Part shown: one piece after another, positions 3,652-60,677 of the stretch
Position numbering within the stretch: position 1 is the first letter of the stretch
Layout: the number at the start of each line of letters is the position of its first letter
DNA from: Gemmatimonadales bacterium
GTDB taxonomy: Bacteria > Gemmatimonadota > Gemmatimonadetes > Gemmatimonadales > GWC2-71-9
Assembly: GCA_035287045.1 (NCBI GenBank)
Contig: DATECF010000116.1
Location: 16,098-80,097, forward strand
Length of the DNA stretch: 64,000 nucleotides
Direction: 5' to 3'
Notes under the pieces: model-generated
What the model was told of the DNA's origin: nothing
The model's database searches: none
The model's input: only the letters and a program-made list of their open reading frames with translations
Made by a program: the position numbers and the translations under genes

Positions 3652-3690
3652 CCCTTCCCCACCCCGGCATGACGGCATGACGGCATCATG
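3652..3690. repeat. 8-bp ATGACGGC tandem units plus CCCTTCCCCACC tail in nuoI-nuoJ spacer
   Basis: Units at 3669-3676 and 3677-3684; 3652-3671 matches 8431-8450 at 19/20 bases. Confidence 0.8.
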
Positions 3691-3693
3691 GCG

Positions 3694-4200
3694 CTACTCA
3701 CCCTTCGGATCCGACGGATCCCACAGCGTCGAGACTTCGTGGGTCTGCGCGCACAGCCGCTCCAAATCGTACACGAACCGGGACCGCTGGTACTCGGCGT
3801 TTTCGTAGTGCACGCCCACGTGGATCGCCTCTTCCGGACAGACTTCCTGACAATAGCCGCAGAAGATGCAGCGGAACTCGTCGATCTCGTAAATCAGCGG
3901 GTACCGGTGCCCTTCCTCGTCCTCTCCCGGCACCAGCTTGATGCAGTTGGCCGGGCAGATTTGCGGACAGAGGCCGCAGGCGACGCACTTGGCGCGCCCC
4001 TGCTCGTCGGTGAGCATGCGGTGGGTCCCGCGCCACCGGGGCGAGAGGGTCCACTCATCGGTGGATTTCTGTTCCGGGTATTCCATGGTGACCTTGGGCC
4101 GGAACACGTGGCCCAGCGTCACCGCCATGCCTTTGAGCGTGGCCCGCAGGTAGCTGACGCCGCTTGCCGGCCGGCGCACGACCTTGACGGCTATGGGCAT
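3694..4200 (-). CDS. nuoI: NADH-quinone oxidoreductase subunit I
   Basis: Two 4Fe-4S motifs CVACGLCPQICP and CIFCGYCQEVCP; start moved to ATG 4200. Confidence 0.96.
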   Translation of the reverse strand: MPIAVKVVRRPASGVSYLRATLKGMAVTLGHVFRPKVTMEYPEQKSTDEWTLSPRWRGTHRMLTDEQGRAKCVACGLCPQICPANCIKLVPGEDEEGHRYPLIYEIDEFRCIFCGYCQEVCPEEAIHVGVHYENAEYQRSRFVYDLERLCAQTHEVSTLWDPSDPKGE

Positions 4201-4214
4201 GGCCTCCCCCGTGT

Positions 4215-4312
4215 GCCGTCGTCCATCCCCCTCCATCGCCCTCCATCCTCCTCCATCCTCCCCGCGAGGGGGATGGAAGGGGATGGAGGGCGATGGAGGG
4301 GGATGAACGGCG
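4215..4312. repeat. 10-bp-period inverted repeat forming a long hairpin in nuoH-nuoI spacer
   Basis: CTCCATC-type units 4221-4260, CCCC-GCGA-GGGG apex at 4260-4271, GGATGGAGGG-type units 4271-4310. Confidence 0.85.
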
Positions 4313-4318
4313 CCCTGC

Positions 4319-5518
4319 TCATGCAACCACTCCTGCCCGCCGCCCCGCCCCCGCCAGCAGCCGCCCCCGGTCCAGCCCCCAGAGCAACCCCGCCGTCGCC
4401 ACCACGTTCACGCCGATGAGCACCGGCACCTCCGGCGCGCCCGTCCGGTCCGCACCCCAGACGACGAACGCGATCACGACGATGTACCCGAGGGCCACGG
4501 GCAGCATGACCTTCCAGCCCAGCTCCATGAGCTGGTCGAACCGGAATCGCGGCAGCGTCCACCGGATCCAGATGTAGCACAACAGGAAGAAGGTGGCCTT
4601 GGCCCCGAACGCCAGGAGCGTGGCGGCGAAGCGCGCGATCGACGGCGGCCCTTCGTCCCATTCGGTGAACGGAATGTCCCAGCCGCCGAAGAACAGCGTG
4701 GCGATCAGGCACGACATGGTGATCATCGCGGCGTACTCCGCGATGAAGAACATCGAGAACTTCATCGCCGAGTATTCCGTGTGGTACCCGGTGACCAGCT
4801 CGGCCTCGGCCTCGGGCAGGTCGAACGGCAGGCGGTTGGTCTCCGCGAAGGCGGCGATCAGAAACAACACGAACGCCACCGTCAGCGCGAGGACGAACCA
4901 CACCGTCCGCTGCTGGGCGGCGACCACCTCCGTGAGCGTCACGTTCCCGCTCAGGAGGAACACGGTGATGACGCTCAGGCCCAGCGCGACCTCGTAGCTG
5001 ATCATCTGCGAGCTGGACCGGATGCCGCCGAGCATGGCGTACTTGCTGGCCGACGACCACCCGGCGAGCACGATACCGTACACCCCCAGGGAGGAGATCG
5101 CCAGGACGAACAAGAAGCCGATGGGCAGGTCGGCAACGACCATGGGGATGGGCCCGTGGTAGGTGAACCGGCCCACCACCGGAAGCGTGAAATCGAACCC
5201 GGGCAGCGGCGCCGCGAGGGGAATGACCGCGAAGGTGATGAGGGACGGGATGAATGACATGAGCGGTGCGAGGAGGAAGAGCGGCCGATCCACCCACTTG
5301 GGCCAGGTCTCTTCCTTCAGGAAGTTCTTGAGCCCGTCCGCCACGGGCTGCAGCAGGCCTGCCGGGCCCACGCGATTGGGTCCCAGCCGATCCTGCATGA
5401 AGGCGCTGCCCCGGCGCTCCAGCCAGGTCGCCAACATCACGCCCACCATCCAGACCGAGAACACCGCCACCACCTTCACCGTGGCGGCCACCAGGAAGCC
5501 CTTGAGCTCGGGCGTCAC
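4319..5518 (-). CDS. nuoH: NADH-quinone oxidoreductase subunit H
   Basis: QDRLGPNRVGPAGLLQPVADGLK and AETNRLPFDLPEAEAELV motifs; GTG start overlapping nuoG stop; 399 aa. Confidence 0.96.
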   Translation of the reverse strand: MTPELKGFLVAATVKVVAVFSVWMVGVMLATWLERRGSAFMQDRLGPNRVGPAGLLQPVADGLKNFLKEETWPKWVDRPLFLLAPLMSFIPSLITFAVIPLAAPLPGFDFTLPVVGRFTYHGPIPMVVADLPIGFLFVLAISSLGVYGIVLAGWSSASKYAMLGGIRSSSQMISYEVALGLSVITVFLLSGNVTLTEVVAAQQRTVWFVLALTVAFVLFLIAAFAETNRLPFDLPEAEAELVTGYHTEYSAMKFSMFFIAEYAAMITMSCLIATLFFGGWDIPFTEWDEGPPSIARFAATLLAFGAKATFFLLCYIWIRWTLPRFRFDQLMELGWKVMLPVALGYIVVIAFVVWGADRTGAPEVPVLIGVNVVATAGLLWGLDRGRLLAGAGRRAGVVA

Positions 5519-7101
5519 GCGCCCACTCCCGCAGACCGGCCTGCCGGCAAGACGACGCCGCGCGTGCCCAGCAGGTCGTAGGACAGGCCGCCAAACCGCG
5601 GCTCTTCCGCCGCCAGCCAGGCGAACGCCTCGGCCGCGGACCCGAAGGGACCGCCCAGCTCCATCTCGGCGAGGAGCGCCCCCAGGACCCACCAGGCCGG
5701 CCGCGCCATGCCGGGCGCCGCTTTGGCCTGGAAGTACCGCTGCACCCGATGGTCGCGGTTGACGAAGGTGCCTTCCTCTTCCGCCACGCTGGCCATGGGC
5801 AGCGCGACCTGCGCCGCGCGAGCCGCGTCCGGCAGAACCGTCCCGAGGTAGATGACCTGGCCGGCCGCCCGCAGGCGATCCGCGGTAACGCCGTCCAGCG
5901 GGAGGTCCACCACCAGCACTACCGCCGCCCCGTCCACCGCCCGCAGCGCGTCCTCATAGCCCTCGGTGTATCCCAGGAGGGTGGCGCCGGCGACGTTGGG
6001 AGCCCGCTCGCCGCGCAACGCGAGGTTGGGCACCCCCGCCAGCGGAATCTCCTCCGGAACGCGCTCCACCTTCACCGCCGCGGTGAGCTCAAAACGCGCC
6101 AGCAAGCGCTTGGCCAGAAACAGCGCTTCGGTGGACGCCCGGGCGGACGCCAGCATCACAGCCCGGCCCCCAGCGCCCCGAAGGATTTCGCCGGCGCGCG
6201 CCAACGCGTGATCCCACGACACCCCCGCCAGCTCGCGCGCCTGCGCCACCAGCGGCGCCTCCATGCGGTCCCCACGATTCAGCCACCGGTATTGCGCCCG
6301 GCCGTGGTCGCACATGAAGTACTGGTTGACCTCGAGGTTGGTGCGGGGCCGCATCCGCACGACCACGTCGTTGCGGGTGTCCAGGTTGACGTTGCATCCC
6401 TGCGAGCAGCCGGTACAGACGCTGGCGGTCTTGTCCAGTTCCCAGGCCCGCGCCTTGTGCAGGAAGTCCTTGGAGAGCAGCGAGCCCACCGGGCACAGAT
6501 CCACCACGTTGCCAGCCCACGGGTGATCCAGCTGCCGGTCCGGGTGGATGCCGATGTACGCCCGGTCACCGCGCTCGCTGACGTTGAGGATCGGCTCCTC
6601 GGCCACGTGCTCCATGAACCGCACGCACCGGGTGCAGAGGATGCAGCGGTTGGGCACGTACAGCACGTCGCCGCCGAAGTCCTCCACCGGATTGAAGCGC
6701 TTGGCGTACGTGGGTGTATAGCGGGTCCTCGCCCGGCCTTCCTGGAAGACGTAATCCTGCAGCTCGCATTCGCCGGCCTGATCGCAGATGGGACAATCCA
6801 GCGGGTGGTTAATGAGCAACAACTCGAGGACCCCCTTGCGGGCCTCCTTCGCCTGCGCGCTGAGCACGTTGACCACCATGCCCTCGGCGACCGGGGTGGC
6901 GCAGGCGATCTGGAGCTTGGGCGTTTTCTCGATCTCCACCAGGCACATGCGGCACACGCCGGCCACCGGCAGCCCGGAGTGGTAGCAGTAGTGCGGGATC
7001 ATCACGCCCGCCTGCTTGGCCGCCTCGATCACCATCGTGCCCCTCGGCACGCTGACCGGGACCCCCTCAATCGTCAGGTTGACCAACGGCTGGTCGGCCA
7101 T
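5515..7101 (-). CDS. nuoG: NADH-quinone oxidoreductase subunit G (short form, 528 aa)
   Basis: CYH...CRMC, HPLDCPICDQAGEC, CILCTRCVRF and CTGCSQGC Fe-S motifs. Confidence 0.94.
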   Translation of the reverse strand: MADQPLVNLTIEGVPVSVPRGTMVIEAAKQAGVMIPHYCYHSGLPVAGVCRMCLVEIEKTPKLQIACATPVAEGMVVNVLSAQAKEARKGVLELLLINHPLDCPICDQAGECELQDYVFQEGRARTRYTPTYAKRFNPVEDFGGDVLYVPNRCILCTRCVRFMEHVAEEPILNVSERGDRAYIGIHPDRQLDHPWAGNVVDLCPVGSLLSKDFLHKARAWELDKTASVCTGCSQGCNVNLDTRNDVVVRMRPRTNLEVNQYFMCDHGRAQYRWLNRGDRMEAPLVAQARELAGVSWDHALARAGEILRGAGGRAVMLASARASTEALFLAKRLLARFELTAAVKVERVPEEIPLAGVPNLALRGERAPNVAGATLLGYTEGYEDALRAVDGAAVVLVVDLPLDGVTADRLRAAGQVIYLGTVLPDAARAAQVALPMASVAEEEGTFVNRDHRVQRYFQAKAAPGMARPAWWVLGALLAEMELGGPFGSAAEAFAWLAAEEPRFGGLSYDLLGTRGVVLPAGRSAGVGA

Positions 7102-7104
7102 CGC

Positions 7105-8418
7105 TCACGCATGCACCAGGACCGGCCGCGGCCGCCTGGTGCCGTTGATGTAGGCTTCGAATTCACCGCGGAACTTCTTGATGCCGCTCACCACCGGGGC
7201 GGCGCAGGAGTCGCTCAACACGCAGATCGTCTTCCCCGTCATCTGCTCCGAAAGGTCCAGCAGCAGGTCCAGGTCCTTCAGCTCCCCCTGCCCAGCCAGG
7301 ATCCGCTGCAGGATGCGCACGGTCCACGCGGTGCCTTCCCGGCACTGGGTGCACTGGGCGCAGGATTCGTGCGCGTAGAACCGGGCCAGGCGCATGATCT
7401 GGTAGACCATGTCGGCGGTGTCGTCGAACACGATGAGGCCGCCCGAGCCCAGCATGGTGCCTTGTTCCACGCACCCTTCGTAGTCCAGCTTGCAGCTCTC
7501 GGACTCTTCTCGCGTCAGGATGGGCACCGAGGAGCCGCCCGGGATGCAGGCCTTGAGGGTTCGGCCGTCCGGCACGCCGCCGGCGAGCTCATGAATCAGC
7601 TCACCCAGCGGGAAGCCCATGGTGATCTCGTAGTTGCCCGGGCGCTTCACGTTGCCGCACACACTGAACAGCTTGGTGCCCGTGCTCCTGGGGTTGGAGA
7701 GGCTGAGGGCCTTGTACCAGGCGGCGCCGCGGTTGATGATGTGCGGGACCGACGTCAGGGTCTCCACGTTGTTGATCGTGGTCGGCATCCCAAAGACGCC
7801 CTGCGCCGCGGGGAACGGCGGCCGAATGCGGGGATTCCCGCGGCGGCCCTCGATCGAGTTCATGAGAGCGGTTTCCTCGCCGCAGATGTAAGCCCCGGCG
7901 CCGCGGTGGACGTACATGTCCAGGCGCTTGCCGCTCCCCATGGCGTTGGGCCCGAGGACCTTTTTCTTGTAGGCCTCGGCCAGGGCCTCTTCCATGACGC
8001 GGATCGGCTCGGTGAACTCCCCTCGGATGTAGATGTAGGTGACCTCGGCCTGGATGGCGTACTGCGCGATGGCGCAGCCCTCGATCAACCCGTGTGGGGT
8101 CCAGCGCATGATCTCCCGGTCCTTGAACGTGCCGGGCTCCGACTCGTCGGCGTTGCAGCACAGGTAATGCGGTTTTCTCTTCTCCTTGGGCATGAAGGAC
8201 CACTTCACGCCCGCTGGGAACCCCGCCCCGCCGCGTCCGCGCAGGCCGGACTCTTTGACGATCTCGATCACCTGCGCCGGCTCCATGGCCAGCGCCTGCT
8301 TCAGCGCCTGATACCCGCCCCGCTTCACCCAGCCGTCGTACCTCCGCGCTTCGGCGTCCCCGAAGTACTGGCTGAGGACCACCGTCTCGTTGGGATGCGG
8401 CTTATGGGGGTAGCCCAT
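7105..8418 (-). CDS. nuoF: NADH-quinone oxidoreductase subunit F
   Basis: GLRGRGGAGF, NADESEPGTFKDR, GAGAYICGEETAL, ESCAQCTQCREG; start moved to ATG 8418. Confidence 0.97.
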   Translation of the reverse strand: MGYPHKPHPNETVVLSQYFGDAEARRYDGWVKRGGYQALKQALAMEPAQVIEIVKESGLRGRGGAGFPAGVKWSFMPKEKRKPHYLCCNADESEPGTFKDREIMRWTPHGLIEGCAIAQYAIQAEVTYIYIRGEFTEPIRVMEEALAEAYKKKVLGPNAMGSGKRLDMYVHRGAGAYICGEETALMNSIEGRRGNPRIRPPFPAAQGVFGMPTTINNVETLTSVPHIINRGAAWYKALSLSNPRSTGTKLFSVCGNVKRPGNYEITMGFPLGELIHELAGGVPDGRTLKACIPGGSSVPILTREESESCKLDYEGCVEQGTMLGSGGLIVFDDTADMVYQIMRLARFYAHESCAQCTQCREGTAWTVRILQRILAGQGELKDLDLLLDLSEQMTGKTICVLSDSCAAPVVSGIKKFRGEFEAYINGTRRPRPVLVHA

Positions 8419-8430
8419 TATGCCACCCTT

Positions 8431-8580
8431 CCCTTCCCCACCGCGGCATGGCATGACGGCGTGACGGCAAAACGGCATGACGGCATAACGGCATTCGTGC
8501 CCCTGCCGCTATGCCGTGGGGCGGCGGGGCGGCTGGGCTGGGATGCCGTGGGGTGGTCGGGTCGGGTGCGGGGGTGCCGT
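8431..8580. repeat. 8-bp repeat cluster with inverted copies in nuoE-nuoF spacer
   Basis: Five degenerate ATGACGGC units at 8453-8492; inverted ATGCCGT at 8511-8517 and 8543-8549. Confidence 0.8.
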
Positions 8581-8584
8581 TGCA

Positions 8585-9082
8585 TCATTGGTACTCCCTC
8601 AACAGCCCAGGCACCTTCTCCGGCGTGACATGCTCGACAAAGTCATCGCCGATCATCACCGGCGTCGCGAAGCCACAGGCACCGAGGCATTCGACCTCGA
8701 TCACGGTGTATTTCCCGTCCGGCGAGGTGGCCCCAAGCTCCTTGCAGCCGGTATGCTCCAGGAAGGCTTTGACCACGCCCTCGGCACCGCACAGGTTGCA
8801 CGGGGTGGTGGTGCACACCTGCACGAAGTGCTTTCCCACCGGATGCTGGTGATACATGGTGTAGAACGTCACCACGCCCTTCACGTACGCGGGCGTGAGG
8901 CCCAACACTTCCGCGACCTCGGCCATGGCGTGATCCGAGATCCAGCCCCGCGCCTGCTGCACCATCCACAACGCGGGGAGGAGCCCGGCCCGTTTGGTCG
9001 CGTAGCGCGTGAGCAGCTTCTCGAGCTCCTTCAATCGCTCGCCCGTGAAGACCGGTTCGTAGGCCGTGGCCTGGTGCGTCAT
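8585..9082 (-). CDS. nuoE: NADH-quinone oxidoreductase subunit E
   Basis: VCTTTPCNLCG and ECLGACG 2Fe-2S motifs, VVTFYTMY. Confidence 0.96.
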   Translation of the reverse strand: MTHQATAYEPVFTGERLKELEKLLTRYATKRAGLLPALWMVQQARGWISDHAMAEVAEVLGLTPAYVKGVVTFYTMYHQHPVGKHFVQVCTTTPCNLCGAEGVVKAFLEHTGCKELGATSPDGKYTVIEVECLGACGFATPVMIGDDFVEHVTPEKVPGLLREYQ

Positions 9083-10368
9083 CGGTCGATCTCCCCCATC
9101 ACGATATCCACGCTCGCGTTGATGGCGATCAAGTCCGCGAGCAAACCACCCTCCGCCATCTTGGGCAGCGCGGCGAGGTTGATGAACGACGGGGGGCGGA
9201 TCCGCCAGCGCACCGGCTTGGCGGTCCCATCAGAGACGAAGTAGTAGCCCAGCTCGCCCTTCCCGTTCTCGATGGGGAAATAGGCCTCGCCCACCGGCGT
9301 CTTCACGCCCTCCATCACTTGCTTGAAGTGGAAGATCATCGCCTCCATGTCGGTCATCGCCGCGCTCTTGGGCGGCAGGATGACGCGCGGATCGTCCACG
9401 TTCAGGGGGCCGTCGGGCAGGCGGTCCAGCGCCTGGCCCAAAATCCGGGTGGACTGCACCATCTCCTCGAACCGCACCAGGTAGCGGTCGTACACGTCGC
9501 CGTGCTCTCCCACCGGGACCTCGAACTCGTAGCTCTCGTAGTCCAGGTAGGGCCGGTCCTTCCGCACGTCGTACGGGACGCCGCTGGCGCGGAGCATCGG
9601 CCCGGAGAGCGAGTAGTTGATCGCTTCTTCGGCCGTCAACGCGCCGACGCCCTGGGTCCGGCCGCACCAGATGGCGTTCCCGGTGAGCACCCGGTCCACT
9701 TCGGCGAGCGTCTTGGGGAAGTTCTTGCAGAACTCGCGCAGCCCGTCCACGAAGCCGTCCGGGACGTCGGCCATCAGCCCCCCCACCCGCGCCATGCTGG
9801 TGGTGAGCCGGGCTCCGGTCCAGGCTTCCTGGAGGTTGTAGATCCGCTCCCGCTCGTAGAACATCCACAGGAACGGGGTGAAGGCGCCGATGTCGATCCC
9901 GGTGGTTCCCAACCACACCAGGTGGGAAATGATCCGGCTCATCTCGCAGGCGATGACCCGCAGCACCTTGCACCGCTCGGTGACCTCGATCCCCATCAGC
10001 TTCTCGACCGCAAGCGCCAGCCCGATGTTGTTGGACATGGGGGACAGGTAGTCCGTCCGGTCGGTCAGCGGGATGATCTGATTGTAGTGCCGGTACTCCC
10101 CGAGCTTCTCGAAGCCCGAGTGCAGGTAGCCTACGTGGGGGATACAGCGCACCACCACCTCGCCGTCCAGCTCCACCACCAGCCGCAACACCCCGTGCGT
10201 GGCCGGGTGCTGCGGCCCGAGGTTGAGCAGGAGGTGGTCCGCGCCCCGCTCGGGGTCCGCCTCGGCCACCGCGGTCCCGGCCACCGCGGTCAGCGGGACG
10301 CGCAGGGGACGACCCGAGGGATCCAGGCCCGGGGTCGCCAGCTCGAACTCCACCGTGCGCTTACTCAC
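9079..10368 (-). CDS. nuoD: NADH-quinone oxidoreductase subunit D
   Basis: LNLGPQHPATHGVLRL, GYLHSGFEK, C-terminal DIVMGEIDR. Confidence 0.97.
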   Translation of the reverse strand: MSKRTVEFELATPGLDPSGRPLRVPLTAVAGTAVAEADPERGADHLLLNLGPQHPATHGVLRLVVELDGEVVVRCIPHVGYLHSGFEKLGEYRHYNQIIPLTDRTDYLSPMSNNIGLALAVEKLMGIEVTERCKVLRVIACEMSRIISHLVWLGTTGIDIGAFTPFLWMFYERERIYNLQEAWTGARLTTSMARVGGLMADVPDGFVDGLREFCKNFPKTLAEVDRVLTGNAIWCGRTQGVGALTAEEAINYSLSGPMLRASGVPYDVRKDRPYLDYESYEFEVPVGEHGDVYDRYLVRFEEMVQSTRILGQALDRLPDGPLNVDDPRVILPPKSAAMTDMEAMIFHFKQVMEGVKTPVGEAYFPIENGKGELGYYFVSDGTAKPVRWRIRPPSFINLAALPKMAEGGLLADLIAINASVDIVMGEIDR

Positions 10369-10981
10369 GCCGGCGCTCCGGGACCGCCCCCCGTTCGCCC
10401 TTGGCCAGCCGCTCCCGCATGTCCTCCGGCAGCTCGTGGTAGGCGTCCGCGATGGACAGCTCCTCCAGGGAGTAGTGCGCCTCCGGGCTGGCTCCCAGGG
10501 CCTGGCGCACCTGCTCCGCGCGCGAAAAGCGGCCGCGCAGGGGAAAGTCCTTCCGGAGCGGGTGCCCCTCGGCGTAGGTCTCCCACATCAGAATGCGCCG
10601 CAGATCCGGATGGCCCCGGAAGGTGATGCCGAACATGTCGTAGACTTCCCGCTCGAGCCAGTTGGCGCCGGCCCAGATCGGTACGACGGACTCGACTTCC
10701 AGGCGGTCCTTGGCCAGCTCCGCCTTGACCCGCAGGGGTGCGCGCCGGTCAAGCGAGAACATCTCGTAGACGACCTCGATGGGCCGCTCGGGATCGCGGT
10801 ACTCGACCGCGGTGACATCCACCAGATAGTTGTACCGCTGCCCCGGCGTCTCCTTGAGCCATCGCAGCACCTCGGCGACGCGCCCGGCGTCCACGTACAC
10901 GATGGTGTCACCGCAGGAGACCAGGGCCCGGCCAATCGTCGACCCGAACTGCCGGCGGAGGGCGTCAACCGAAGGGTTCAC
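10361..10981 (-). CDS. nuoC: NADH-quinone oxidoreductase subunit C
   Basis: ANWLEREVYDMFGITFRGHPDLRRIL, GHPLRKDFPL. Confidence 0.96.
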   Translation of the reverse strand: MNPSVDALRRQFGSTIGRALVSCGDTIVYVDAGRVAEVLRWLKETPGQRYNYLVDVTAVEYRDPERPIEVVYEMFSLDRRAPLRVKAELAKDRLEVESVVPIWAGANWLEREVYDMFGITFRGHPDLRRILMWETYAEGHPLRKDFPLRGRFSRAEQVRQALGASPEAHYSLEELSIADAYHELPEDMRERLAKGERGAVPERRRE

Positions 10982-10987
10982 GTCCGC

Positions 10988-11608
10988 TTAGGCTGACCGC
11001 GTTTGGTGAATGGAGTTGCCGAACGGCTCGGACATCTCGTCCACCACGTCCGGCGGCAGCCGCAGGCCGGTGTCGTCCAGCGGCCGTTCCTGGCGCAGGG
11101 ACCCATCCACCACGGTCTCCCCACGGATCTTCTTGTGGAGCAGGAGAATGCCGTACAACAGCCCCTCGGGGCGGGGTGGGCAGCCGGGCACGTACACGTC
11201 CACCGGCACCACCGTATCGATGCCCTGCACCATGGCGTAGTTGTCGAAGATCCCGCCGGTCGACGCGCAGGCGCCCATGGAGATGACCCATTTGGGCTGG
11301 GTCATCTGATCGTAGATCCGCCGGATGACGGGCGCCAACTTGAACGGCAGGCGACCCGCGCAGATCAGCACGTCGGACTGGCGCGGGGAGAAGGCCATGC
11401 GTTCCATGCCGAAGCGGGCCAGGTCGTACCGGCCCGCGGCGGTCGCCATGAACTCGATGGCGCAGCACGCCGTGCCGAACGGCATGGGCCAGAGGCTGCT
11501 GGTGCGCGCCCAGTTGACCAGGAAATCGAGCTTGGTCGTCAGCCAGTTGGGCGACAGGCTCGAAAGCACCTGGGTCTCCGGCCCCGAGGCATGCTGGCTC
11601 AATCCCAT
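10988..11608 (-). CDS. nuoB: NADH-quinone oxidoreductase subunit B
   Basis: [34 protein letters not shown]; start moved to ATG 11608. Confidence 0.97.
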
Positions 11609-11955
11609 TCCAGGGCTCCTCGCTTCCAGGCGTACGCGTACCCGACGAGCAGGATGACGATGAACACCAGCATCTCCACCAGCCCGAAGAGACCCAGCCG
11701 GCGAAACGAGACGCCCCACGGAATCATGAACACGGTTTCAATGTCGAACACGATAAACAACATGGCGACGAGGTAGAACTTCACGCTGAAGCGCTCGCGA
11801 ACGGTGCCGATGGGCGGCATCCCGGACTCGTAGGGCGTTTGCTTGACCGGCGTCGAGCGGGGACGGAGGATCAGGTGGGAGACCGCGATCATCCCGACCC
11901 CCGTGACCATCACCAAGCCGGCCAACAGAATCAGCGACAGGTATTCCTGCGTCAT
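11599..11955 (-). CDS. nuoA: NADH-quinone oxidoreductase subunit A
   Basis: [32 protein letters not shown]. Confidence 0.97.
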
Positions 11956-21307: not shown

Positions 21308-22431
21308 GCCTAACCCTCCGGCAGATCGCGCTGCGGGAAATCACGCTCCACCTCAAGGAACCGTTCCGGATTTCGTCCGGCGTGGCGTCGCACCGCCGCA
21401 TCCTCCTGGTGGAGTTGACGGACGCCGACGGCACACACGTCTGGGCGGAATGCGTGGCCGGCGAAGCGCCCAACTACTCGCCGGAGACGGTGGATACGGC
21501 ATGGCTCGCCATCCGGGAGTGGGTGGCGCCGCGCGTCCTGGGGCGCACCTTCGAGAACGCCCAGAACGTCTTCCCCGCCCTGGAGCAGGATTTCCGCGGC
21601 CACCGCATGGCGAAGGCGGCGGTGGAAATGGGCATGTGGGCGCTGGCAGCCACTCGCGCGGAGCAGAGTCTCTCACGGTTTCTGGGCGGTACGCGCCAGG
21701 AAATCGCCACCGGCATCTCCCTCGGCATTCAGGAATCGCCCGCGAAGCTGGTGGAGAAGGCGCGCGCGGCGCAGGCGCAGGGGTACCGCAAGATCAAGCT
21801 CAAGATCCAGCCCGGCTCGGACGTCGCGTTCGTGGCGGCGGTGCGGGAGGCCCTGGGGCCGGACGCCCCCCTGATGGCCGACGCCAACAACGCCTATACC
21901 TTGGCCGAGGGTGATGCGCTCGAGGAGCTCGACCGGTTCGGGTTGGTCATGATCGAGCAGCCGCTCGCCTGGGATGACGTGGTGCAACACGCGCAGCTCC
22001 AGCAGCGCCTCAAGACGCCGATCTGCCTGGACGAGTCCATCACCGGACCTGACAAGGCGGAAGACATGGTGGCGCTGGGAAGCGGGCGGATCATCAACAT
22101 CAAGCCGGGACGGGTGGGCGGCTTTGCGGCCTCCAGGGCCATCCACGATTTCTGCGCACGGCATGACGTCCCCGTGTGGTGCGGCGGGATGTTGGAGTCG
22201 GGCGTGGGGCGGGCGTACAACGTGGCACTCGCCTCCCTGCCCAACTTCCTCCTCCCAGGAGATCTGAGTCCCAGCGCGCGCTACTGGGAGCGGGACATCG
22301 TCACGCCCGAGTGGACCATGAACGGCCATGGCATGGTGCGGGTCCCGCGCGACGCGCCGGGGCTCGGCATCACCGTGGATCGGGACCGGGTGGAGAACCT
22401 CACGGTGAGGCGGGAGGTAATCACGGCATGA
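21304..22431 (+). CDS. menC: N-succinylamino acid racemase / o-succinylbenzoate synthase (enolase superfamily)
   Basis: KIKLKI, ADANNAY, IEQP, LDES, NIKPGRVGG, WCGGMLES, GDLSPS; no other men genes in the window. Confidence 0.9.
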   Translation: MSLTLRQIALREITLHLKEPFRISSGVASHRRILLVELTDADGTHVWAECVAGEAPNYSPETVDTAWLAIREWVAPRVLGRTFENAQNVFPALEQDFRGHRMAKAAVEMGMWALAATRAEQSLSRFLGGTRQEIATGISLGIQESPAKLVEKARAAQAQGYRKIKLKIQPGSDVAFVAAVREALGPDAPLMADANNAYTLAEGDALEELDRFGLVMIEQPLAWDDVVQHAQLQQRLKTPICLDESITGPDKAEDMVALGSGRIINIKPGRVGGFAASRAIHDFCARHDVPVWCGGMLESGVGRAYNVALASLPNFLLPGDLSPSARYWERDIVTPEWTMNGHGMVRVPRDAPGLGITVDRDRVENLTVRREVITA

Positions 22432-22451
22432 CGACGCCACGGCGTAGGGGC

Positions 22452-22483
22452 TCGACGGCACGACGGCATGACGGCATGACGGC
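22452..22483. repeat. Four 8-bp (A/T)(C/T)GACGGC units at racemase-amidohydrolase junction
   Basis: TCGACGGC ACGACGGC ATGACGGC ATGACGGC; last unit supplies the ATG at 22476. Confidence 0.75.
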
Positions 22484-23684
22484 AGCGCTCCATCGCCGGC
22501 TGGTCGAGCTGCGGCACGATCTTCACCGGCATCCCGAGGTGGCGTTCGAAGAGCGCGAAACCGCCAAGCGCCTGGAAGCCGAGCTGGCTCGGCTCAAGCC
22601 GGTGGAGCTCAAGCGCGTGGCCGGTACCGGGGTGATCGCGCGCATCAAGGGCAAGCGGCGCGGGGCGCCTGCGGTCGCCATCCGCGGGGACATTGATGCG
22701 CTGCCTATCCAGGAAGCCACCGGGCTGCCGTTCACGTCCGAGGTGCCCGGCGTCATGCACGCCTGCGGGCATGATGTGCACGCCACGTGGGCCGTGGGCG
22801 CCGCGGCGCTGTTGGCGCGGCAGCCCGCCACCGGCGACGTCGTGATCCTGCTGCAGCCCGCCGAGGAGACCGGCAAAGGAGCGCTCGCCCTTCTGGAAGC
22901 GGGTGCCATCGAAGGGATCGCGGCCATCTTCGGCGCCCACGTGGACCGGCGGTTCCCGGTTGGCCAGGTGGTGGCGGACGAAGGTTCGTTGGCGGCGGCC
23001 GCGGATACGTTCAGGATCGAGCTGATAGGAAGCGGAGCGCACGCCGCCCGGCCACACGAAGCACGGGACCCCATTGTGGGCGCCGCCGCCGTGATCCAGG
23101 CACTTCAAATGATCGTGGCGCGGCGCCTCAATCCAGCCACGCCGGCGGTGGTCAGCGTCACCACCGTCCACGCCGGGTCGGCGGACAACGTCATTCCCGG
23201 GCAGGCGACGCTGACCGGGACCATTCGCACCCTCGATGCGGGAACGCGGGAACTGGTCCATGCCGAGGTGAAGCGGATCGTGGACCAGACGGCCCGGGCC
23301 CAGGCGCTGGACGTCAGGCTGACCCTCGACCTTGGGCCCCCGCCCATCGTCAACCCGGCGCAGCCGGTCGCGTGGGCCCGCCAGGCCGTGACCCGGGTGC
23401 TCGGCGAAGCCGCGCTGGTCCCGCTCGGCTTCACCAACATGGCCGGGGAAGATTTCGCCTGGTATCTGGAACACGTCCCCGGGTGTTTCCTGCGGATCGG
23501 TGCCCGGGAAGACGGCGGAGACCCGATTCCCGCCCATTCGCCTCGCTTCTACGCGGCGGACGAGGCGATCTCTGCCGGGGCGGCGGTGCTGGCGGAGGTG
23601 GCCCGGGTGGCCTCGGCCGCGCTGGCGGGACCTCGAGCCTCGGGACGGCACCGCCGGGCGGTTGGCCGGAAACCGGCACGGTAG
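22476..23684 (+). CDS. M20 family amidohydrolase, probable N-succinyl-L-amino acid desuccinylase
   Basis: [32 protein letters not shown]; alternative ATGA-coupled start at 22428. Confidence 0.9.
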
Positions 23685-49466: not shown

Positions 49467-49494
49467 CTCGGCGTGCTCGGTGTGCTCGGCGGTG
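49467..49494. repeat. Three 9-bp CTCGG(C/T)GTG units in intergenic spacer
   Basis: CTCGGCGTG CTCGGTGTG CTCGGCGGTG. Confidence 0.55.
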
Positions 49495-55127: not shown

Positions 55128-55179
55128 TCGCGGCCCGCCAGGTAGGCGTGATTCACCCGCAGTCCGGTAAGGAGTTGCA

Positions 55180-55434
55180 GTGGCTAACATTCGGTCCGCC
55201 AAGAAGCGCATGCGGCAGTCGCGGCGTCACGCGGCGGAGAATCGGGTACAGCGGTCGGCGCTCAGAACCGCCGTCCGGAAGGTCCGCAGCGCCACCACGG
55301 CCGCTGAGGCTGGTGCGGCCCTGCGTGCGGCGGAGCGCTTGCTGGACCGCGCCGCCCGGAAGCGGCTGGTCCATCCCAACACCGTCGCCCGGCAGAAGTC
55401 CCGGTTGCACAAGCTGGCACGCCAGAAACCGTGA
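55180..55434 (+). CDS. rpsT: 30S ribosomal protein S20
   Basis: MANIRSAKKR, HPNTVARQKSRL; GTG start after AAGGAG. Confidence 0.97.
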   Translation: MANIRSAKKRMRQSRRHAAENRVQRSALRTAVRKVRSATTAAEAGAALRAAERLLDRAARKRLVHPNTVARQKSRLHKLARQKP

Positions 55435-55438
55435 CGAG

Positions 55439-56251
55439 CTAGAGCGCCGCCAGCTCCGCGCCGCAGCGCTCGCAGTACCACTCCGTCGGCAGGTTCATCG
55501 TCCCGCACTCTTTGCACTTGAGCGACTTGGTCGCCTTGCTCGAGCGCGGCGTGGCCCCCTTCTTCGCGTCCGGATCGGCGAACCCCTTGCTGGGCGGCTC
55601 GGCCGCCACCGGTTCATGAATCGCCCGCATGGCGCCGCTGGCGCGTCCCGGCGCCGGCCCCTGCGATTCGTCCTCGGTGACCGAGCGAAGGAACGCCAGT
55701 TCGTCCTCCGCGGCTGGGCGGGCGGGTTCCTTCCGCAGTTCTTTCCTCGGGGGCTCCACCGTCTTTGACGCCTTGACTGGCTCCACGACACGGGCCCGGG
55801 GAGGCGGCGCTGACGGCACCTCGATCAGGGACATCACCTCATCGAGACGCCCGATCTCATCGTCGGACTGCTTCAGCTCCTCGCGCACCTTCACCAGCGC
55901 GCCCAACAAATCGGTATGCACCTGCCGCCATTGGGCCTCGTCGTACTCCCCCACCGCGTGGCGCAGCTCCGCTTCGGCCAGCCGCTCGGCGGCTTCGGCC
56001 TCCTGGCGCCCGAGACCGGCGCGGGTGCCCTCCAGCCGATCCATCGTGGAGTGCAGGTCGCTTTCGTGCCCCTGCAGCTCCTTCATCACCTCCGCGAGAC
56101 GCTTCTCGTAGTCCGCCCGAACCCGAGCCCGCACCTGCTCGGGCGTGGTGTCGGACGCCATCGAGAGCCGCTGCAGCCAGGTCTGAATCTGCTGCCGCTC
56201 GTCCAGCAGCCGCTGGATGGCCGCCGTCGCCTTGGAGAACCCTCGTGCCAT
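55439..56251 (-). CDS. Hypothetical coiled-coil protein with C-terminal zinc ribbon
   Basis: E/R/L-rich helical N-terminus; CKECG-x9-CERCG at the C-terminus. Confidence 0.75.
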   Translation of the reverse strand: MARGFSKATAAIQRLLDERQQIQTWLQRLSMASDTTPEQVRARVRADYEKRLAEVMKELQGHESDLHSTMDRLEGTRAGLGRQEAEAAERLAEAELRHAVGEYDEAQWRQVHTDLLGALVKVREELKQSDDEIGRLDEVMSLIEVPSAPPPRARVVEPVKASKTVEPPRKELRKEPARPAAEDELAFLRSVTEDESQGPAPGRASGAMRAIHEPVAAEPPSKGFADPDAKKGATPRSSKATKSLKCKECGTMNLPTEWYCERCGAELAAL

Positions 56252-56370
56252 TCCGCGCCCTCTCGTCGGGTTCAGTGACCTCGGTCCCTGCTTACAAGAT
56301 AGCAACAAGACTGCACATCGGGACATACCAATCGTTGTGGTACATCGCTAACATGTTGTCTCTTAATATG

Positions 56371-57660
56371 TTATGCAGCATCACCTCGAAACACTGTTAA
56401 GCCTCCGACGAAGGTTCGCAGCACCCGGCCGTTCAGGTCGCGGCCGCCAAAGGGCGTGTTGCGACTCTTGGAGTAGAACGCGGCTGGGTCCACACGCCAG
56501 CTCGCGTCCGGGTCAACCACCACCACATCACCGGGAGCCCCCCGTTGGAGGCTGCCGCCCGGCAGGTGAAAGACCCGGGCCGGGGCCGTGCTCATCCGGT
56601 CGATCAACTCCGGTAGCGTCAGCGCCCCGCCCCGCACCAGCTCGGTGAGCCCCAACCCCAGCGCCGTTTCCAGACCGACGATGCCGAACGGCGCATCGTC
56701 GAACTCGCGCTCCTTGGCGTCGTAGTGATGCGGGGCGTGGTCGGTGGCGATGACATCAATGGTGCCGTCCTTGAGGCCCGCGCGCAGCGCGGCGACGTCG
56801 GCGGCCTGGCGGAGCGGCGGGTTCATTTTGGCGTTGGTGTCATAGCCCTCGCAGGCTTCATCGGTCAGGGTCAAATGGTGGGGCGTGACCTCGGCCGTCA
56901 CCCGGACACCCTTTTCCTTGGCACGCCGGATCAGCTCCACCGAGCCGCGGGTGGACATGTGGCACAGGTGAATGTGTCCCCCGGTCAACTCGGCCAGCAG
57001 GAGGTTCCGCGCCACCATGATTTCTTCCGCCGCCGCGGGGATGCCGCGCAGGCCCAGGCGGGTGGAGACCAGCCCCTCGTGCATGACCCCGTTGGCCTTG
57101 AGCGTGGGATCCTCACAATGGTCCGCCACCGGGATGTCGAAGGTCCGGGCGTACGACAATGCCATACGCAGGAGGTGGCTCGACGTCACCGGATGTCCAT
57201 CATCGCTCACTGCCACGGCCCCCGCCCCAACCAGCTCGCCGAACTCGGAGAGTTGCTGACCCTTCTGCCCCAGGGAGATCGCCCCAATGGGATAGACCCG
57301 TGCCGCACCCGCAGCCTGGGCCTGCTTCACGATGAACCCCACGGCGGCCTGGTTGTCGGTGACCGGATCCGTGTTCGGCATGGGACACACCGCGGTGAAG
57401 CCACCAGCCGCCGCGGCGCGGGCTCCCGTCGCCACGGTTTCCACGTCTTCCCGCCCCGGCTCGCGCAGGTGCACATGGAGGTCAATCAGACCCGGGGCGA
57501 CGACCTTCCCCCGTGCGTCCACCACCTCGGCGCCGTCGGGCGCGCTCAAGGCCGGCCCCAGGCCCGCGACCCGGCCATCCGCCAGCAATACGTCGGCCAC
57601 GCCGTCATGTCCCTGGGAGGGGTCGATCACCCGGCCCCCGCGGATCAACACCGGCTTCAT
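56371..57660 (-). CDS. pyrC: Dihydroorotase
   Basis: [35 protein letters not shown]. Confidence 0.96.
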
Positions 57661-58631
57661 TCGCCAACCTCCGCCGAGCGTCCCTTGGCCGCCTCGGCCA
57701 TATCCGGCCGGCCCCCGGCGAGGAGGTACAGGACGGCCATGCGGACCGCCACTCCGTTGGTCACCTGGCCCAGAATCACACTGTGGGGGCCGTCGGCGAC
57801 CCGGGAATCGATTTCCACGCCGCGGTTCATCGGCCCGGGATGCAGGATCACCAGGTCCCTGGGGGCTCTCTCCAGCCGCTCCACCGTCACCCCAAAGACC
57901 CGGTTGTACTCGCGGAGCGATGGCAGGTAGCCCGCGTGCATCCGCTCGAGCTGAATCCGCAGCACGTTGAGCGCGTCGGCCCACTGAATGGCATCCTCGA
58001 TCCGGCGGAAGACGCTGACACCCAGCTCTTCGATCCCCAGCGGGAGGAGCGACGCCGGCCCGCACACGGCCACCTGAGCACCGAGCTTGAGGAGGCCCCA
58101 GATGTTGGACCGGGCCACCCGGCTGTGCAGGATGTCGCCGCAGATGCACACCTTGAGGCCCTCGATCCGGCCGAACTTGTCCCGCAACGTCAGCAGGTCC
58201 AGGAGTCCCTGGGTGGGGTGCTCGTGGGTGCCGTCACCGGCGTTGACCACGTTGGACCGGATGCGGTCGGCCAGAAATTGGGCGGCTCCGGATGACGGGT
58301 GGCGCATCACCACCATGTCGATCCGCATGGCCTCGAGGTTCCGGGCGGTGTCCACCAGGGTCTCGCCCTTTTCCACCGACGAGCCGGCGGCGGCCACGTT
58401 CACGGTGTCCGCGGACAGGCGCTTCTCGGCGAACTCGAAGGAGATACGGGTCCTGGTGGAGGCTTCGAAAAACAGGTTGACGATGGTCTTGCCGCGGAGC
58501 GTGGGGACTTTCTTGATGGTGCGCTCGCTGACTTCTTTGAAAGGTTCTGCGGTATCGAGAATGAAGCGGATTTGATCGGCGGTGAGTGGCTCCAGGGCCA
58601 GCAGGTCCTTCCCGAGGAAACGTTCCGTCAC
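57657..58631 (-). CDS. pyrB: Aspartate carbamoyltransferase catalytic subunit
   Basis: [35 protein letters not shown]. Confidence 0.97.
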
Positions 58632-59191
58632 CGACCCCCACCTCCTTCCCCACGAACCAGCTCCACCGCGTCCCGGCCATCCACCTCCTGCAGGAACACG
58701 TCCACCCGGTCTCCCGGTTGCGCGCGCACGGTCTTGCCCACGATGTCCGCCTGGATCGGCAGCTCGCGGCCGCCGCGGTCAATCAACGCCGCCAGCCCGA
58801 TCCGCGCCGGCCGGCCGAAGTCGGCGACTTCATCCAGCGCGGCCCGCACGGTCCGGCCGGTGTAGAGCACGTCGTCCACGATCACCACGCACCGGCCGTC
58901 CACGTTTTCCGGCAGGTGGGTTTCCCCCACCACCGGCCGGGGCCCGATCGTGCCCACGTCATCCCGATACAGGGTGATGTCCAGCGTGCCGCGCGGGACC
59001 GAGACCCCTTCCCTCGCCTCGATCAACCGCGCCAGGCGCTCGGTGAGCTCCGGACCACGGCGGTGGATACCCACCAGCACCAGGCGGCCGGTCCCCTCGG
59101 CGAACTCGACGATCTCTTTTGCCATGCGCTGGAGCGCCCGCTGCACGCCGCGGGCATCGAGGAGAGCGTTGCGCGTTCCGGCAACGACCAT
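58628..59191 (-). CDS. pyrR: Pyrimidine regulatory protein / uracil PRTase PyrR
   Basis: [37 protein letters not shown]. Confidence 0.96.
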
Positions 59192-59222
59192 AGCTGGAGG
59201 ACAAGCTAATCCCTCCCTCCAC

Positions 59223-59254
59223 CAATCCGCAATGCGAAATTCACAATCCACAAT
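59223..59254. repeat. 7-bp-period CAATCC(G/A) repeat, about 4.5 units
   Basis: CAATCCG CAATGCG AAATTCA CAATCCA CAAT. Confidence 0.6.
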
Positions 59255-59292
59255 GGAAGGAGTCCGGCCTCTCGTGTATAATGGCTGCCACT

Positions 59293-60219
59293 ATGGGACT
59301 CATGCGAACGGCCCTGCTCCGCGCCTCACAGAGTCGCTGGCTCCGCGATCAGGTACGCGATCGCCGCTTCGTGCGGCGCGCCGTCTCCCGGTTCATGCCC
59401 GGCGAGGACGTCGAGTCGGCACTGCAAGCCGCTCAGCGATTCGTCCAGCAGAACCTGACCGCCGTGCTCACCCAGCTGGGCGAGAACGTGGCCGACGCCA
59501 ACGAAGCACGCGCCGTGGGCGGGCATTACACCGAGGTGCTGAACCGGATCCAGGCACTCAAGCTCCCGGCGCATGTGTCCGTCAAGCCTACCCAGCTGGG
59601 CCTCGACCTGAGCCCGGACCTATGCCTGGAGCAGCTGACCGCGCTGGTGGCGCACGCGGCCAAGGTGGGGACCTTCGTCTCCATCGACATGGAGGGTTCC
59701 GCGTACGTGGACCGCACGCTGGACCTCTACCGCAAGCTGCGCCCCGAGCATCCCAACGTCGGGATCTGCCTCCAGGCGTACCTGCACCGTACGCCGGACG
59801 ACCTCGACCGCCTTGGATCCCTGCAGCCCACCATCCGGCTGGTGAAGGGTGCGTACAACGAGCCGGCGAGCATCGCCCTACCGAAAAAGCGCGACGTGGA
59901 CCTTCGCTACTTCGAGCTGGCGCAACGCCTCCTGGCCGCCACGCCCCGTCCCCCGCAGCCCCACGGGTTCGGCACCCACGATGTGGGCCTCATCGAGCAC
60001 ATCTGCCACCACGCCCGTTCGTCCGGCGTGCCCAACTCGGCCTTCGAGCTGCAGATGCTCTTCGGCATCCGGGCGGCGGACCAGGTGCGCCTGGCCCGGG
60101 CCGGCTACGCGATGCGGGTCTTGATCAGCTACGGCAGCTACTGGTTCCCCTGGTACATGCGCCGCCTGGCGGAGCGGCCGGCGAATATCTGGTTCGTGGT
60201 GAAGTCGATGTTCGCGTAA
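59293..60219 (+). CDS. Monofunctional proline dehydrogenase
   Basis: SVKPTQLG, IDME, LQAYL, RLVKGAY, GTHD, ELQMLFGI, YMRRLAERPAN; TATAAT at 59277-59282 argues against the ATG at 59281. Confidence 0.93.
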   Translation: MGLMRTALLRASQSRWLRDQVRDRRFVRRAVSRFMPGEDVESALQAAQRFVQQNLTAVLTQLGENVADANEARAVGGHYTEVLNRIQALKLPAHVSVKPTQLGLDLSPDLCLEQLTALVAHAAKVGTFVSIDMEGSAYVDRTLDLYRKLRPEHPNVGICLQAYLHRTPDDLDRLGSLQPTIRLVKGAYNEPASIALPKKRDVDLRYFELAQRLLAATPRPPQPHGFGTHDVGLIEHICHHARSSGVPNSAFELQMLFGIRAADQVRLARAGYAMRVLISYGSYWFPWYMRRLAERPANIWFVVKSMFA

Positions 60220-60226
60220 GGACGGA

Positions 60227-60268
60227 GGATGGAAGGGGATGGAGGGCGATGGAGGGGGATGAACGGCG
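60227..60268. repeat. Exact 42-bp copy of the right arm of the nuoH-nuoI hairpin
   Basis: GGATGGAAGGGGATGGAGGGCGATGGAGGGGGATGAACGGCG identical to 4271-4312. Confidence 0.9.
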
Positions 60269-60440
60269 TGGGACGCGCCGCAGGCCGCGCTTGTGGCCTC
60301 ACATGACCGTGGTCCTACCGCTGCACGTGAGGCGTGGCCCCAACGGGTGACGTGAATAGCCCGGCAGGCTGCCCCACTTCCTGCTGGCCTCAGCGATCCG
60401 CAACTGCCGCCACCGCCGCCGGTCGTTATAATGCTCCCGA

Positions 60441-60527
60441 GGAGAGGTGTCCGAGTGGCTGAAGGAGCCGGTCTCGAAAACCGGTAGGCCCGTAAGGGTC
60501 TCGTGGGTTCGAATCCCACCCTCTCCG
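60441..60527 (+). tRNA. tRNA-Ser(CGA)
   Basis: GGAGAGG/CCTCTCC acceptor stem, anticodon arm CCGGT-CTCGAAA-ACCGG, long variable arm, GGTTCGAATCC T-loop; CCA not encoded; TATAAT at 60427-60432. Confidence 0.96.
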
Positions 60528-60550
60528 TCCCCCGCCCCCACCCGTTCCCC

Positions 60551-60677
60551 ACGGCATATGCCGTTATGCCGTCATGCCGTTATGCCGTTATGCCGTTATG
60601 CCGTCATGCCATTATGCCGTTATGCCGTCATGCCGTTATGCCGTTATGCCGTCATGCCGCTATGCCGCCATGCCGCG
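60551..60677. repeat. Tandem array of 15 ATGCCG(T/C)(T/C) 8-mers with one adjoining inverted unit
   Basis: Units counted from 60558 to 60677; ACGGCAT at 60551-60557 pairs with the first unit. Confidence 0.92.

Follow-up and report, generated by a model that had tools for sequence, protein, structure and literature searches.

Tandem arrays of 8- and 10-nucleotide units occupy six intergenic sites in the window of Gemmatimonadales DNA analysed here (64,000 nucleotides, C116:16098-80097 of the source genome), and we think it rather probable that these arrays are the arms of dispersed, lineage-specific small palindromic elements whose full form encloses a four-helix-bundle gene or, less often, a GxxExxY gene. 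In the full element, two short tandem arrays with units of 7-10 nt, inverted relative to each other, would form a stem around a small gene, either of the PF05635/TIGR02436 family (23S rRNA intervening-sequence/Avd) or, more rarely, of the GxxExxY/PD-(D/E)XK family (PF13366); the element's architecture would be that of a gene-bearing 23S rRNA intervening sequence, lodged between protein genes, and the majority of copies would be gene-less hairpins or single arms. If so, one architecture joins three separately described puzzles, namely intergenic tandem repeats with units of 7-10 bases, rRNA intervening sequences and multi-copy four-helix-bundle proteins, and the arms found in this soil bacterium and its relatives would connect a selfish gene cassette with the short tandem repeats of bacteria, which have long lacked an explanation.

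The source genome is a metagenome-assembled bin of 4.2 Mb with 68.7% G+C that is 97% complete. Arrays were located with Tandem Repeats Finder (TRF) in the window and in the whole genome, and a TRF array was assigned to a family if its unit differed by at most one mismatch from the reference unit (4.2 Mb scanned). Genes were called with a codon-statistics script of our own (3753 genes, 90.8% coding), which is the basis of every statement about intergenic position made below.

Genes enclosed by the arrays

Listing the genes that are flanked on both sides by one repeat family, a check proposed in the original prediction from this DNA, yielded a gene for a protein of 118 aa between octamer arrays on contig C8. 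The protein matches PF05635 ('23S rRNA intervening sequence protein') with 90 bits and TIGR02436 ('four helix bundle protein') with 83 bits, as well as, weakly, the diversity-generating retroelement protein Avd; homology of the PF05635 family with Avd is stated in the literature (PMC10053308). All five PF05635 genes of the source genome lie between or beside short-unit arrays (Table 1), three of them (C73, C8 and C64) with inverted arrays of one family on both sides, and the single PF13366 gene (GxxExxY, PD-(D/E)XK) is flanked on one side by TTCACCGCGGAG with CGCAGAG units and on the other by their inverse. The arrays beside these genes belong to the nonamer, octamer, decamer, GGCGGWC and CGCAGAG families. 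Every major repeat family of the source genome has a gene-bearing copy. In the C73 element, which measures 591 nt, the arrays pair around the gene with a folding energy of -283 kcal/mol (z = -5.7). The window itself has no PF05635 gene and so holds gene-less copies only.

The same arrangement is found in relatives. PF05635 is a multi-copy family there, with 1-13 genes per genome in 35 of 41 genomes, and 21 of 25 full-length loci have a strong inverted repeat (score at least 18) between their 260-nt flanks, a feature of none of 50 shifted control windows. The arms at these loci are mostly tandem units of 7-9 nt that differ from locus to locus. The unit GGGTGTA, which brackets a PF05635 gene in genome G026, was counted 62, 30 and 17 times in three species of the genus, in many cases as plus and minus copies close together, and not once in two other genera; the unit that brackets the gene is thus also dispersed in the genus as gene-less hairpins. 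Outside the order, a tblastn search against plasmids returned almost only filamentous cyanobacteria plus Gemmatirosa. The PF05635 copies of Nostoc punctiforme and Calothrix are bracketed by inverted heptamer arrays and that of Gemmatirosa by an 8-mer array, and the copy of Nostoc PCC 7120 has a weak 12-nt inverted repeat only. The original prediction had stated that four-helix-bundle and GxxExxY genes are often flanked by such repeats, and the counts in the source genome and in its relatives bear this out.

Array families and their placement

Four unrelated repeat families, with periods of 7, 8, 9 and 10 bp, had been predicted at eight gene junctions of the window. TRF finds an array at each of the eight coordinates, and by our gene calls all eight fall in spacers, five of them between co-directional genes (the three nuo junctions, the MR_MLE/M20 junction and the DUF58 junction), as had been claimed. 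Two of the families are real and account for six of the sites, four for an 8-mer with the unit ACGGCATR (ATGCCGTY on the opposite strand) and two for a 10-mer with the unit GGATGGAGGG. Genome-wide, the 8-mer family has 73 arrays, 66 of them intergenic, and the 10-mer family 25, versus 2 and 1 TRF arrays for the 9-mer and 7-mer sites, which we therefore ruled out as families; the scores of these two sites (43 and 30) are comparable to those of dozens of in-gene TRF arrays in the window.

Enrichment between genes holds across the genome, as the original prediction would have it: arrays with a period of 7, 8 or 10 are mostly intergenic in 189 of 316 cases, versus 9.2% intergenic DNA (p about 1e-110). 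The corresponding count is 53 of 166 for 9-mer arrays, and the periods 6, 12, 15, 18 and 21, all multiples of three, are at background (47 of 479). Further families of the source genome are GTGAGAY 7-mers (25 arrays), GGCGGWCA 8-mers (41 arrays), CGCAGAG 9-mers and the GCGGATAG(A) 8/9-mer family, all 12 arrays of which are intergenic. The GCGGATAG family stands between convergent genes in 7 of 14 cases (C144:2313, C149:8805, C160:16068 and C198:4731, among others), and there the TAG of the outermost units is the stop codon of both neighbouring genes.

The arrays share a design, as predicted. A reverse-complement partner (at least two units, within 150 nt) accompanies 107 of 234 intergenic arrays, versus 13 of 234 for a reversed-unit control. 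Between co-directional genes the array lies a median of 10.5 nt from the upstream stop and 31.5 nt from the downstream start; median distances are 5-7 nt to the stops of convergent genes and 54-81 nt to the starts of divergent ones. Every unit of the 5' arms carries a stop codon (CATGA, CATAA, CATAG; GTGAGAC; GGATAG), and since the period is not divisible by three, about three units suffice to close every frame; in many cases the first array unit contains the stop of the upstream gene itself. The 8-mer family has no orientation bias with respect to transcription (21 sense, 30 antisense), which fits symmetric hairpins. Single-arm arrays seem, by eye only, to prefer the stop-rich orientation.

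The hairpin potential that had been attributed to the window sites stands for the 10-mer element between nuoH and nuoI, a perfect-looking hairpin of 98 nt with arms at 4222-4258 (TCCATCCCCC x3.7) and 4266-4312 (GAGGGGGATG x4); folded as RNA, the element 4201-4318 reaches -94 kcal/mol (z = -8.5). It does not stand for the single arms considered below or for the nuoE/nuoF spacer, in which a C-rich half with spaced CGGCAT units is followed by five ATGCCGTY units, a G-rich tail and the nuoF ATG; this G/C-segregated sequence folds at -72 kcal/mol, no better than shuffles (z only -0.9). The nuoI/nuoJ spacer reads, on the mRNA strand, ATGCCGTC three times, then GGGGTGGGGAAGGG, then the nuoJ ATG.

Filled and empty junctions

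Among 120 other genomes of the same GTDB family, 2 of them of the same genus, the 8-mer pattern (four units), which has 127 hits in the source genome, gives one stray match (G074), and the 10-mer pattern, with 22 hits in the source genome, gives none. The original prediction called for orthologous junctions with and without the repeats, and both kinds exist. For example, the nuoH/nuoI junction, 118 nt long in the source genome, is an overlapping TGATG in the two same-genus genomes and is tight in 78 of 80 relatives, and the nuoI/nuoJ junction, of 48 nt, is TGAcgcGTG in the two same-genus genomes (3 nt; pattern TGAnnnGTG). Of 57 relatives usable for nuoE/nuoF, 34 have a tight junction (an overlap of the form TAATG or TGATG, or at most 40 nt) and the other 23 an insert of 43-148 nt, mostly made of inverted heptamer arrays whose units vary with the lineage (GATTGCG, AATGCGG, GAATGTC, CGAATAT, ATCAATG). 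The relatives found by NuoI are exclusively Gemmatimonadales/Gemmatimonadota metagenome bins. These comparisons show copies at junctions that are tight or overlapping in relatives, right after stop codons. Additionally, two sites that are empty in the source genome are filled in a relative of 77-86% identity.

A scan of metagenomes returned many contigs of the same species and a few at 75-97% identity; among contigs at least 93% identical, which had been preselected for carrying arrays, no presence or absence of a whole element was seen. The scan, which covered only CGGCATRR, also returned octamer arrays of this unit in 62 metagenome contigs without DNA similarity to the source genome (among L102-L216, e.g. 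L149, L119 and L185), and these contigs span 36 to 76% G+C, so that one 8-base word recurs in widely different organisms. The nuoE/nuoF inserts of L048, L058, L073 and L088 (locus ~1900-2000) have in common, in the loop that separates the inverted heptamer arms, a GGTTCGATCC-like motif similar to a tRNA T-arm.

Copying and slippage

The 10-mer single arm at 60227-60268 is identical to 4271-4312, within the nuoH/nuoI element, over 42 bases without a mismatch and with the unit variants in identical order, and the variant order GATGGAAGGGGATGGAGGGCGATGGA is present at five loci of the source genome. Conserved non-repeat termini also exist (GTTCATCCCCC...GGGGGATGAAC, and GAACGACGGGG after stop codons), and the termini TTCACCGCGGAG...CTCCGCGGTGAA are common to the GxxExxY-bearing element and a gene-less hairpin on C23. 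We read the 42-nt identity, the shared variant order and the conserved termini as evidence for the copying of whole arms over growth in place.

An alignment of 272 kb with contigs of at least 93% identity (97-100% for most) contains 29 indels of 5 nt or more; about 25 fall in arrays, and 16 of these are multiples of 8 (8, 16, 24, 32 or 40 nt). Strains thus differ in arm length by whole units, as expected of replication slippage.

Reading frames through the operon inserts

All three nuo spacers of the window contain a short open reading frame (ORF) that opens at the upstream stop or shortly past it and closes at the following start or a few bases inside it. At nuoI/nuoJ it has 15 codons (MMPSCRHAGVGKGVK, then the stop) and ends in an ATGA overlap with the nuoJ start; at nuoH/nuoI it starts at an ATGA overlap with the nuoH stop and finishes 7 nt inside nuoI; at nuoE/nuoF it has 57 codons and overlaps the nuoE stop as ATGA and the nuoF start as TAATG. 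The same geometry is found in 22 of the 23 filled nuoE/nuoF junctions of relatives, in which a stop overlaps or abuts the nuoF start and the frame is open back to RTGA at the nuoE stop. This relay frame is stop-free in 24 of 24 cases, versus 26 of 48 for the other two frames, and every nuoE/nuoF spacer with a relay frame has a fitting length, even where related inserts differ in length. Genome-wide, by a loose criterion, relay ORFs occur at 15% versus 9%.

In tightly coupled operons, copies persist only in forms that would keep translation flowing, with a relay frame that opens at the upstream stop (RTGA) and closes at the downstream start (TRATG or ATGA). Such a frame is a concrete, testable rule for the tolerance of inserts in an essential operon, with 22 of 23 independent or diverged nuoE/nuoF inserts conforming to it.

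How the elements might spread and act

New copies would arise by the copying of whole arms or hairpins, and units that carry stops and whose length is not a multiple of three would let an insertion end the upstream gene at once. By analogy with rRNA intervening sequences, RNase III probably cleaves the long stems once they are transcribed. The original prediction had offered cargo-less remnants of small insertion elements as the source of the repeats; the part of this that is largely upheld is that the arrays are cargo-less copies of a small insertion cassette, and the part that is not supported is their origin as remnants by deletion.

A wider hypothesis, which we regard as possible and on balance doubtful, is that short-repeat hairpins and four-helix-bundle (Avd/S23p-like) or GxxExxY proteins form one self-propagating system across several phyla. 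The protein would act in trans, and repeat-armed stems would owe their creation, copying or maintenance to it; transcribed junctions (cistron boundaries, gene ends, tRNA ends, rRNA helices) would be colonised, and operon copies would survive by means of relay frames. If this were true, it would account for the hitherto unexplained surplus of 7-10 nt tandem repeats found in cyanobacteria, Xanthomonas, Gemmatimonadota and other groups, and PF05635 would have its first function outside diversity-generating retroelements.

Weighing the evidence

A number of observations count against the reading of the arrays as arms of a gene-bearing element. The PF05635 genes on C249 and C186 have an array on one side only, and no remnants of enclosed genes were found within gene-less hairpins. 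The two octamer-associated four-helix-bundle proteins are the least similar pair, with 31% identity, which is unfavourable to the idea that the protein recognises the sequence of its own arms; the idea that protein similarity tracks arm family was rejected on this ground. Single-arm arrays, including those of the nuoI/nuoJ spacer and of 60551..60677, fold no better than shuffles. The strict relay frame is not significantly enriched genome-wide (5 of 118 repeat spacers versus 16 of 871, p = 0.09), and we therefore treat it as a constraint in tightly coupled operons and not as a general property. No movement of elements was observed, the junctions have no consistent target-site duplication (CCGGTGA in L073, nothing in the others), and the Y1/RAYT transposase family (PF01797) has no match at E <= 0.01 in the source genome, while 6 of 14 control genomes match. 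[quoted passage not shown] The spread by copying is thus inferred and not seen. Two reverse-transcriptase genes (PF00078; C93:1004-1621 and C213:2145-2810) lie on other contigs than the four-helix-bundle genes. Finally, gene coordinates depend on our crude caller, and the bin is fragmented into 347 metagenome contigs.

Among the alternatives, the one that fares best, although we consider it unlikely, is that the arrays are host-selected RNA elements (stabilisers, partial terminators, RNase III sites or coupling devices) kept for regulation, with the small genes as passengers in their loops. Such a role would account for the placement directly after stops, the enrichment of the GCGGATAG family between convergent genes, the filling of the nuoE/nuoF junction in many lineages with different units and the conservation of the relay frame, and both stability and coupling have been suggested as roles of the STRR hairpins between hupS and hupL (PMC2670836). 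However, the corresponding junctions of close relatives do without elements, the units are entirely replaced from genus to genus, single arms fold no better than shuffles, and the relay frame is more naturally damage limitation than purpose. Terminators with U-tracts are likewise missing at the elements: none of 7 terminator-like sites in 3000-9500 coincides with an element, and the arms have no T-runs after them. No canonical promoters were found at the nuo elements, and an Rfam search of the whole window at gathering score matched the tRNA-Ser alone.

We judge it improbable, and more so than host selection, that these are ordinary long simple-sequence repeats, each grown in place by slippage from a chance unit, with families that reflect mutational or compositional preference, no copying between loci and no link to small genes. 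Slippage is evidently active, given the unit-number differences between strains; repeats of 5-11 nt, mostly intergenic, occur sporadically among bacteria (Mrazek 2007, cited after PMC4679880); CGGCATRR arrays occur in the unrelated metagenome contigs of widely differing base composition described above; and in L146 a unit-like flank (CTGCCGTT) precedes the array. But slippage makes no inverted partners, cannot put 118 nt between overlapping genes, and leaves unexplained the one order of variant units at five loci, the common non-repeat termini at different loci and the small genes that lie within inverted arrays in relatives far beyond the controls.

We give very little credence to the idea that the arrays are binding sites, or non-B DNA (G-quadruplex, i-motif), for a sequence-specific DNA- or RNA-binding regulator. 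The 10-mer unit and the G-rich tails could form G-quadruplexes, as has been argued for GGGNATC repeats (PMC4692102), and TAACTGA heptamers have been proposed as sites of a post-transcriptional regulator (PMC4679880). The 8-mer, however, has no G-tracts and no orientation bias, each genome has many unrelated units, and the flanking genes have no common function. The least credible alternative is a repetitive extragenic palindrome (REP/REPIN) system of hairpin doublets mobilised in trans by a REP-associated tyrosine transposase (RAYT, a Y1 HuH transposase), which would fit the intergenic, species-specific doublets in tens to ~100 copies and the protein gene flanked by its own repeat family, the REPIN-RAYT layout (PMC3116915), but which was rejected for the missing Y1 transposase in a 97%-complete genome and has against it that the arms are tandem short units and not imperfect palindromes of 20-40 nt, and that the flanked gene encodes a four-helix bundle with no known catalytic fold.

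Relation to repeats already described

Cyanobacterial short tandemly repeated repetitive (STRR) sequences have been described since 1990. Long simple-sequence repeats, STRR among them, consist of head-to-tail units of 5-11 nt, are longer than expected by chance and mostly non-coding, and differ in unit number between strains, all of which holds for the source-genome arrays. STRR hairpins between hupS and hupL in cyanobacteria, for which transcript stability or translational coupling has been suggested, likewise consist of short tandem units that form hairpins in intercistronic spacers (PMC2670836), and it is heptamer arrays that bracket the four-helix-bundle genes of Nostoc and Calothrix. Unlike STRR sequences, the source genome, which belongs to a different phylum, has units of 8, 9 and 10 nt besides 7; the STRR literature, as far as we searched it, makes no link to four-helix-bundle genes.

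The gene-bearing form is most readily compared with the 23S rRNA intervening sequence of Coxiella burnetii and Leptospira, which in Coxiella carries an S23p gene between terminal inverted repeats and is cut out by RNase III (PMC4990558). In both, a small gene of the same family (S23p = PF05635) sits inside an inverted-repeat stem, and both are sporadic and lineage-specific, have short gene-less forms and, in the case of the intervening sequences, are regarded as selfish. The elements of the source genome differ in lying between protein genes, including those of the nuo operon, and not in rRNA helices: the copies examined stand between protein genes or after a tRNA gene (the rRNA genes of the bin were not looked at). 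They differ also in their stems of tandem units of 7-10 nt, in varying by whole units and in having tens of gene-less copies per family.

Two heptamer repeats share much with these arrays. The GGGNATC repeats of Xanthomonas and Nostoc, interpreted as G-quadruplex formers (Rehm et al. 2015, PMC4692102), occupy intergenic positions between aligned ORFs, no more than 50 bp from stops, vary in unit number between species and form 70-75 convergent inverted pairs per genome; unlike them, the 8-mer of the source genome cannot form quadruplexes, and neither cargo genes nor filled and empty operon junctions have been reported for GGGNATC. The TAACTGA direct repeats of Beggiatoaceae, cyanobacteria and Bacteroidetes (MacGregor 2015, PMC4679880) are likewise abundant and intergenic, with a stop-bearing unit that in one orientation closes all three frames, and their arrays reach at most about two units into gene ends. 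Those repeats are nearly all direct, lie just upstream of starts and have a strong orientation bias, whereas about half of the source-genome arrays are inverted pairs, abut stops and show no such bias. More generally, simple repeats of 5-11 nt, mostly intergenic and with 7-mers the commonest, were recorded in scattered bacteria (Mrazek 2007, as cited in PMC4679880).

Other repeats share the placement or the layout. Mycobacterial interspersed repetitive units (MIRU) are, in the accounts of Supply 1997 given in PMC12548453 and PMC3184786, inserted at cistron boundaries in operons, with filled and empty sites and variable copy number, and have an internal short ORF that overlaps the neighbouring stop and start codons, preserving translational coupling. 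An internal ORF over the upstream stop and downstream start is likewise present at all three nuo junctions of the window; as far as those accounts go, MIRU units differ in measuring 40-100 bp and in having neither a hairpin of inverted arrays nor an associated small gene. REPIN-RAYT systems (Bertels and Rainey 2011, PMC3116915) have hairpin doublets as the replicating unit, lineage-specific families and a gene flanked by its own repeat; they differ from the present elements in their RAYT and in the make-up of their arms, and no nuclease or transposase fold is known for the cargo protein here, although its rarer GxxExxY counterpart is of the PD-(D/E)XK fold.

The suggestion in the original prediction that the repeats could be an undescribed class thus holds in part. 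Repeats of 5-11 nt, STRR hairpins (PMC2670836), the heptamer pairs of Xanthomonas and Nostoc (PMC4692102), the three-frame stops of TAACTGA and rRNA intervening sequences with a gene in the stem (PMC4990558) are already in print; literature that ties dispersed arrays to PF05635 or GxxExxY genes was not found. What the source genome adds are units of 8, 9 and 10 nt, a gene-bearing copy for each major family, including one with a GxxExxY gene, clean empty sites in same-genus genomes, unit variation at the level of strains and a conserved relay frame. For annotation, the elements would account for many unusual spacers, breaks between contigs and spurious N-terminal extensions in bins of Gemmatimonadota.

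Other features of the window and of the genome

Table 1. Repeat sites and neighbouring genes of the window (window coordinates) and PF05635 genes of the source genome (by contig)
Feature	Location	Strand	Description
nuo operon	848-11955	-	NuoH, NuoF and NuoE by Pfam; NuoI by direct translation
nuoI/nuoJ spacer, 48 nt	3646..3693	-	single-arm 8-mer array, TRF 3665-3686 (2.8 copies)
nuoH/nuoI spacer, 118 nt	4201..4318	-	10-mer hairpin element, two inverted arms
nuoE/nuoF spacer, 166 nt	8419..8584	-	composite 8-mer element, TRF 8450-8494 (5.6 copies)
MR_MLE racemase / M20 peptidase junction	22428..22484	+	8-mer array of GACGGCAT units, TRF 22449-22484 (4.5 copies)
9-mer singleton	49467..49491	.	CTCGGCGTG x2.8, score 43; weak, familyless
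7-mer singleton	59218..59254	.	degenerate TCCACAA-like run, 73% matches, score 30; weak, familyless in source genome
10-mer single arm	60220..60268	+	directly after proline dehydrogenase stop; TRF 60227-60268
tRNA-Ser(CGA)	60441..60527	+	8-mer array begins 24 nt past 3' end
longest 8-mer array of the window	60551..60677	+	palindrome ACGGCAT/ATGCCGT, then ATGCCGTY x15; TRF 60557-60675 (14.9 copies)
PF05635 gene	C73		between inverted GCGGATAG arrays
PF05635 gene	C8		between octamer arrays
PF05635 gene, truncated	C64		between decamer arms
PF05635 gene	C249		beside octamer hairpin
PF05635 gene, truncated	C186		beside GGCGGWC units

At the MR_MLE/M20 junction the upstream stop codon belongs to an array unit (ACGGCATGA), and the array, in frame with the M20 gene, is either a spacer or an N-terminal extension. 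An alternative start of the M20 peptidase overlaps the upstream stop (ATGA, 22428) and would translate the octamer array as an N-terminal extension of 16 residues (22428-22478). The longest array stops 14 nt ahead of a 4HBT thioesterase gene. Two arrays of the source genome begin directly after tRNA 3' ends (window 60528 onward; C200:17531).

Many contigs of the source genome stop at or near arrays, and the repeats therefore probably break up the assembly. The two same-genus representatives (G001, G002) measure 2.8-2.9 Mb, versus the 4.2 Mb in 347 contigs of the source genome. Its top-scoring tandem repeats are of a different kind from the short-unit arrays, namely 21/42-nt arrays of palindromic units such as GGGACAACAGGCAGTTGTCCC (C271:1774-2025, C193:3409-3651, C35:3618-3918, C31:46360-46694, C177:10576-10840 and C299:464-812).

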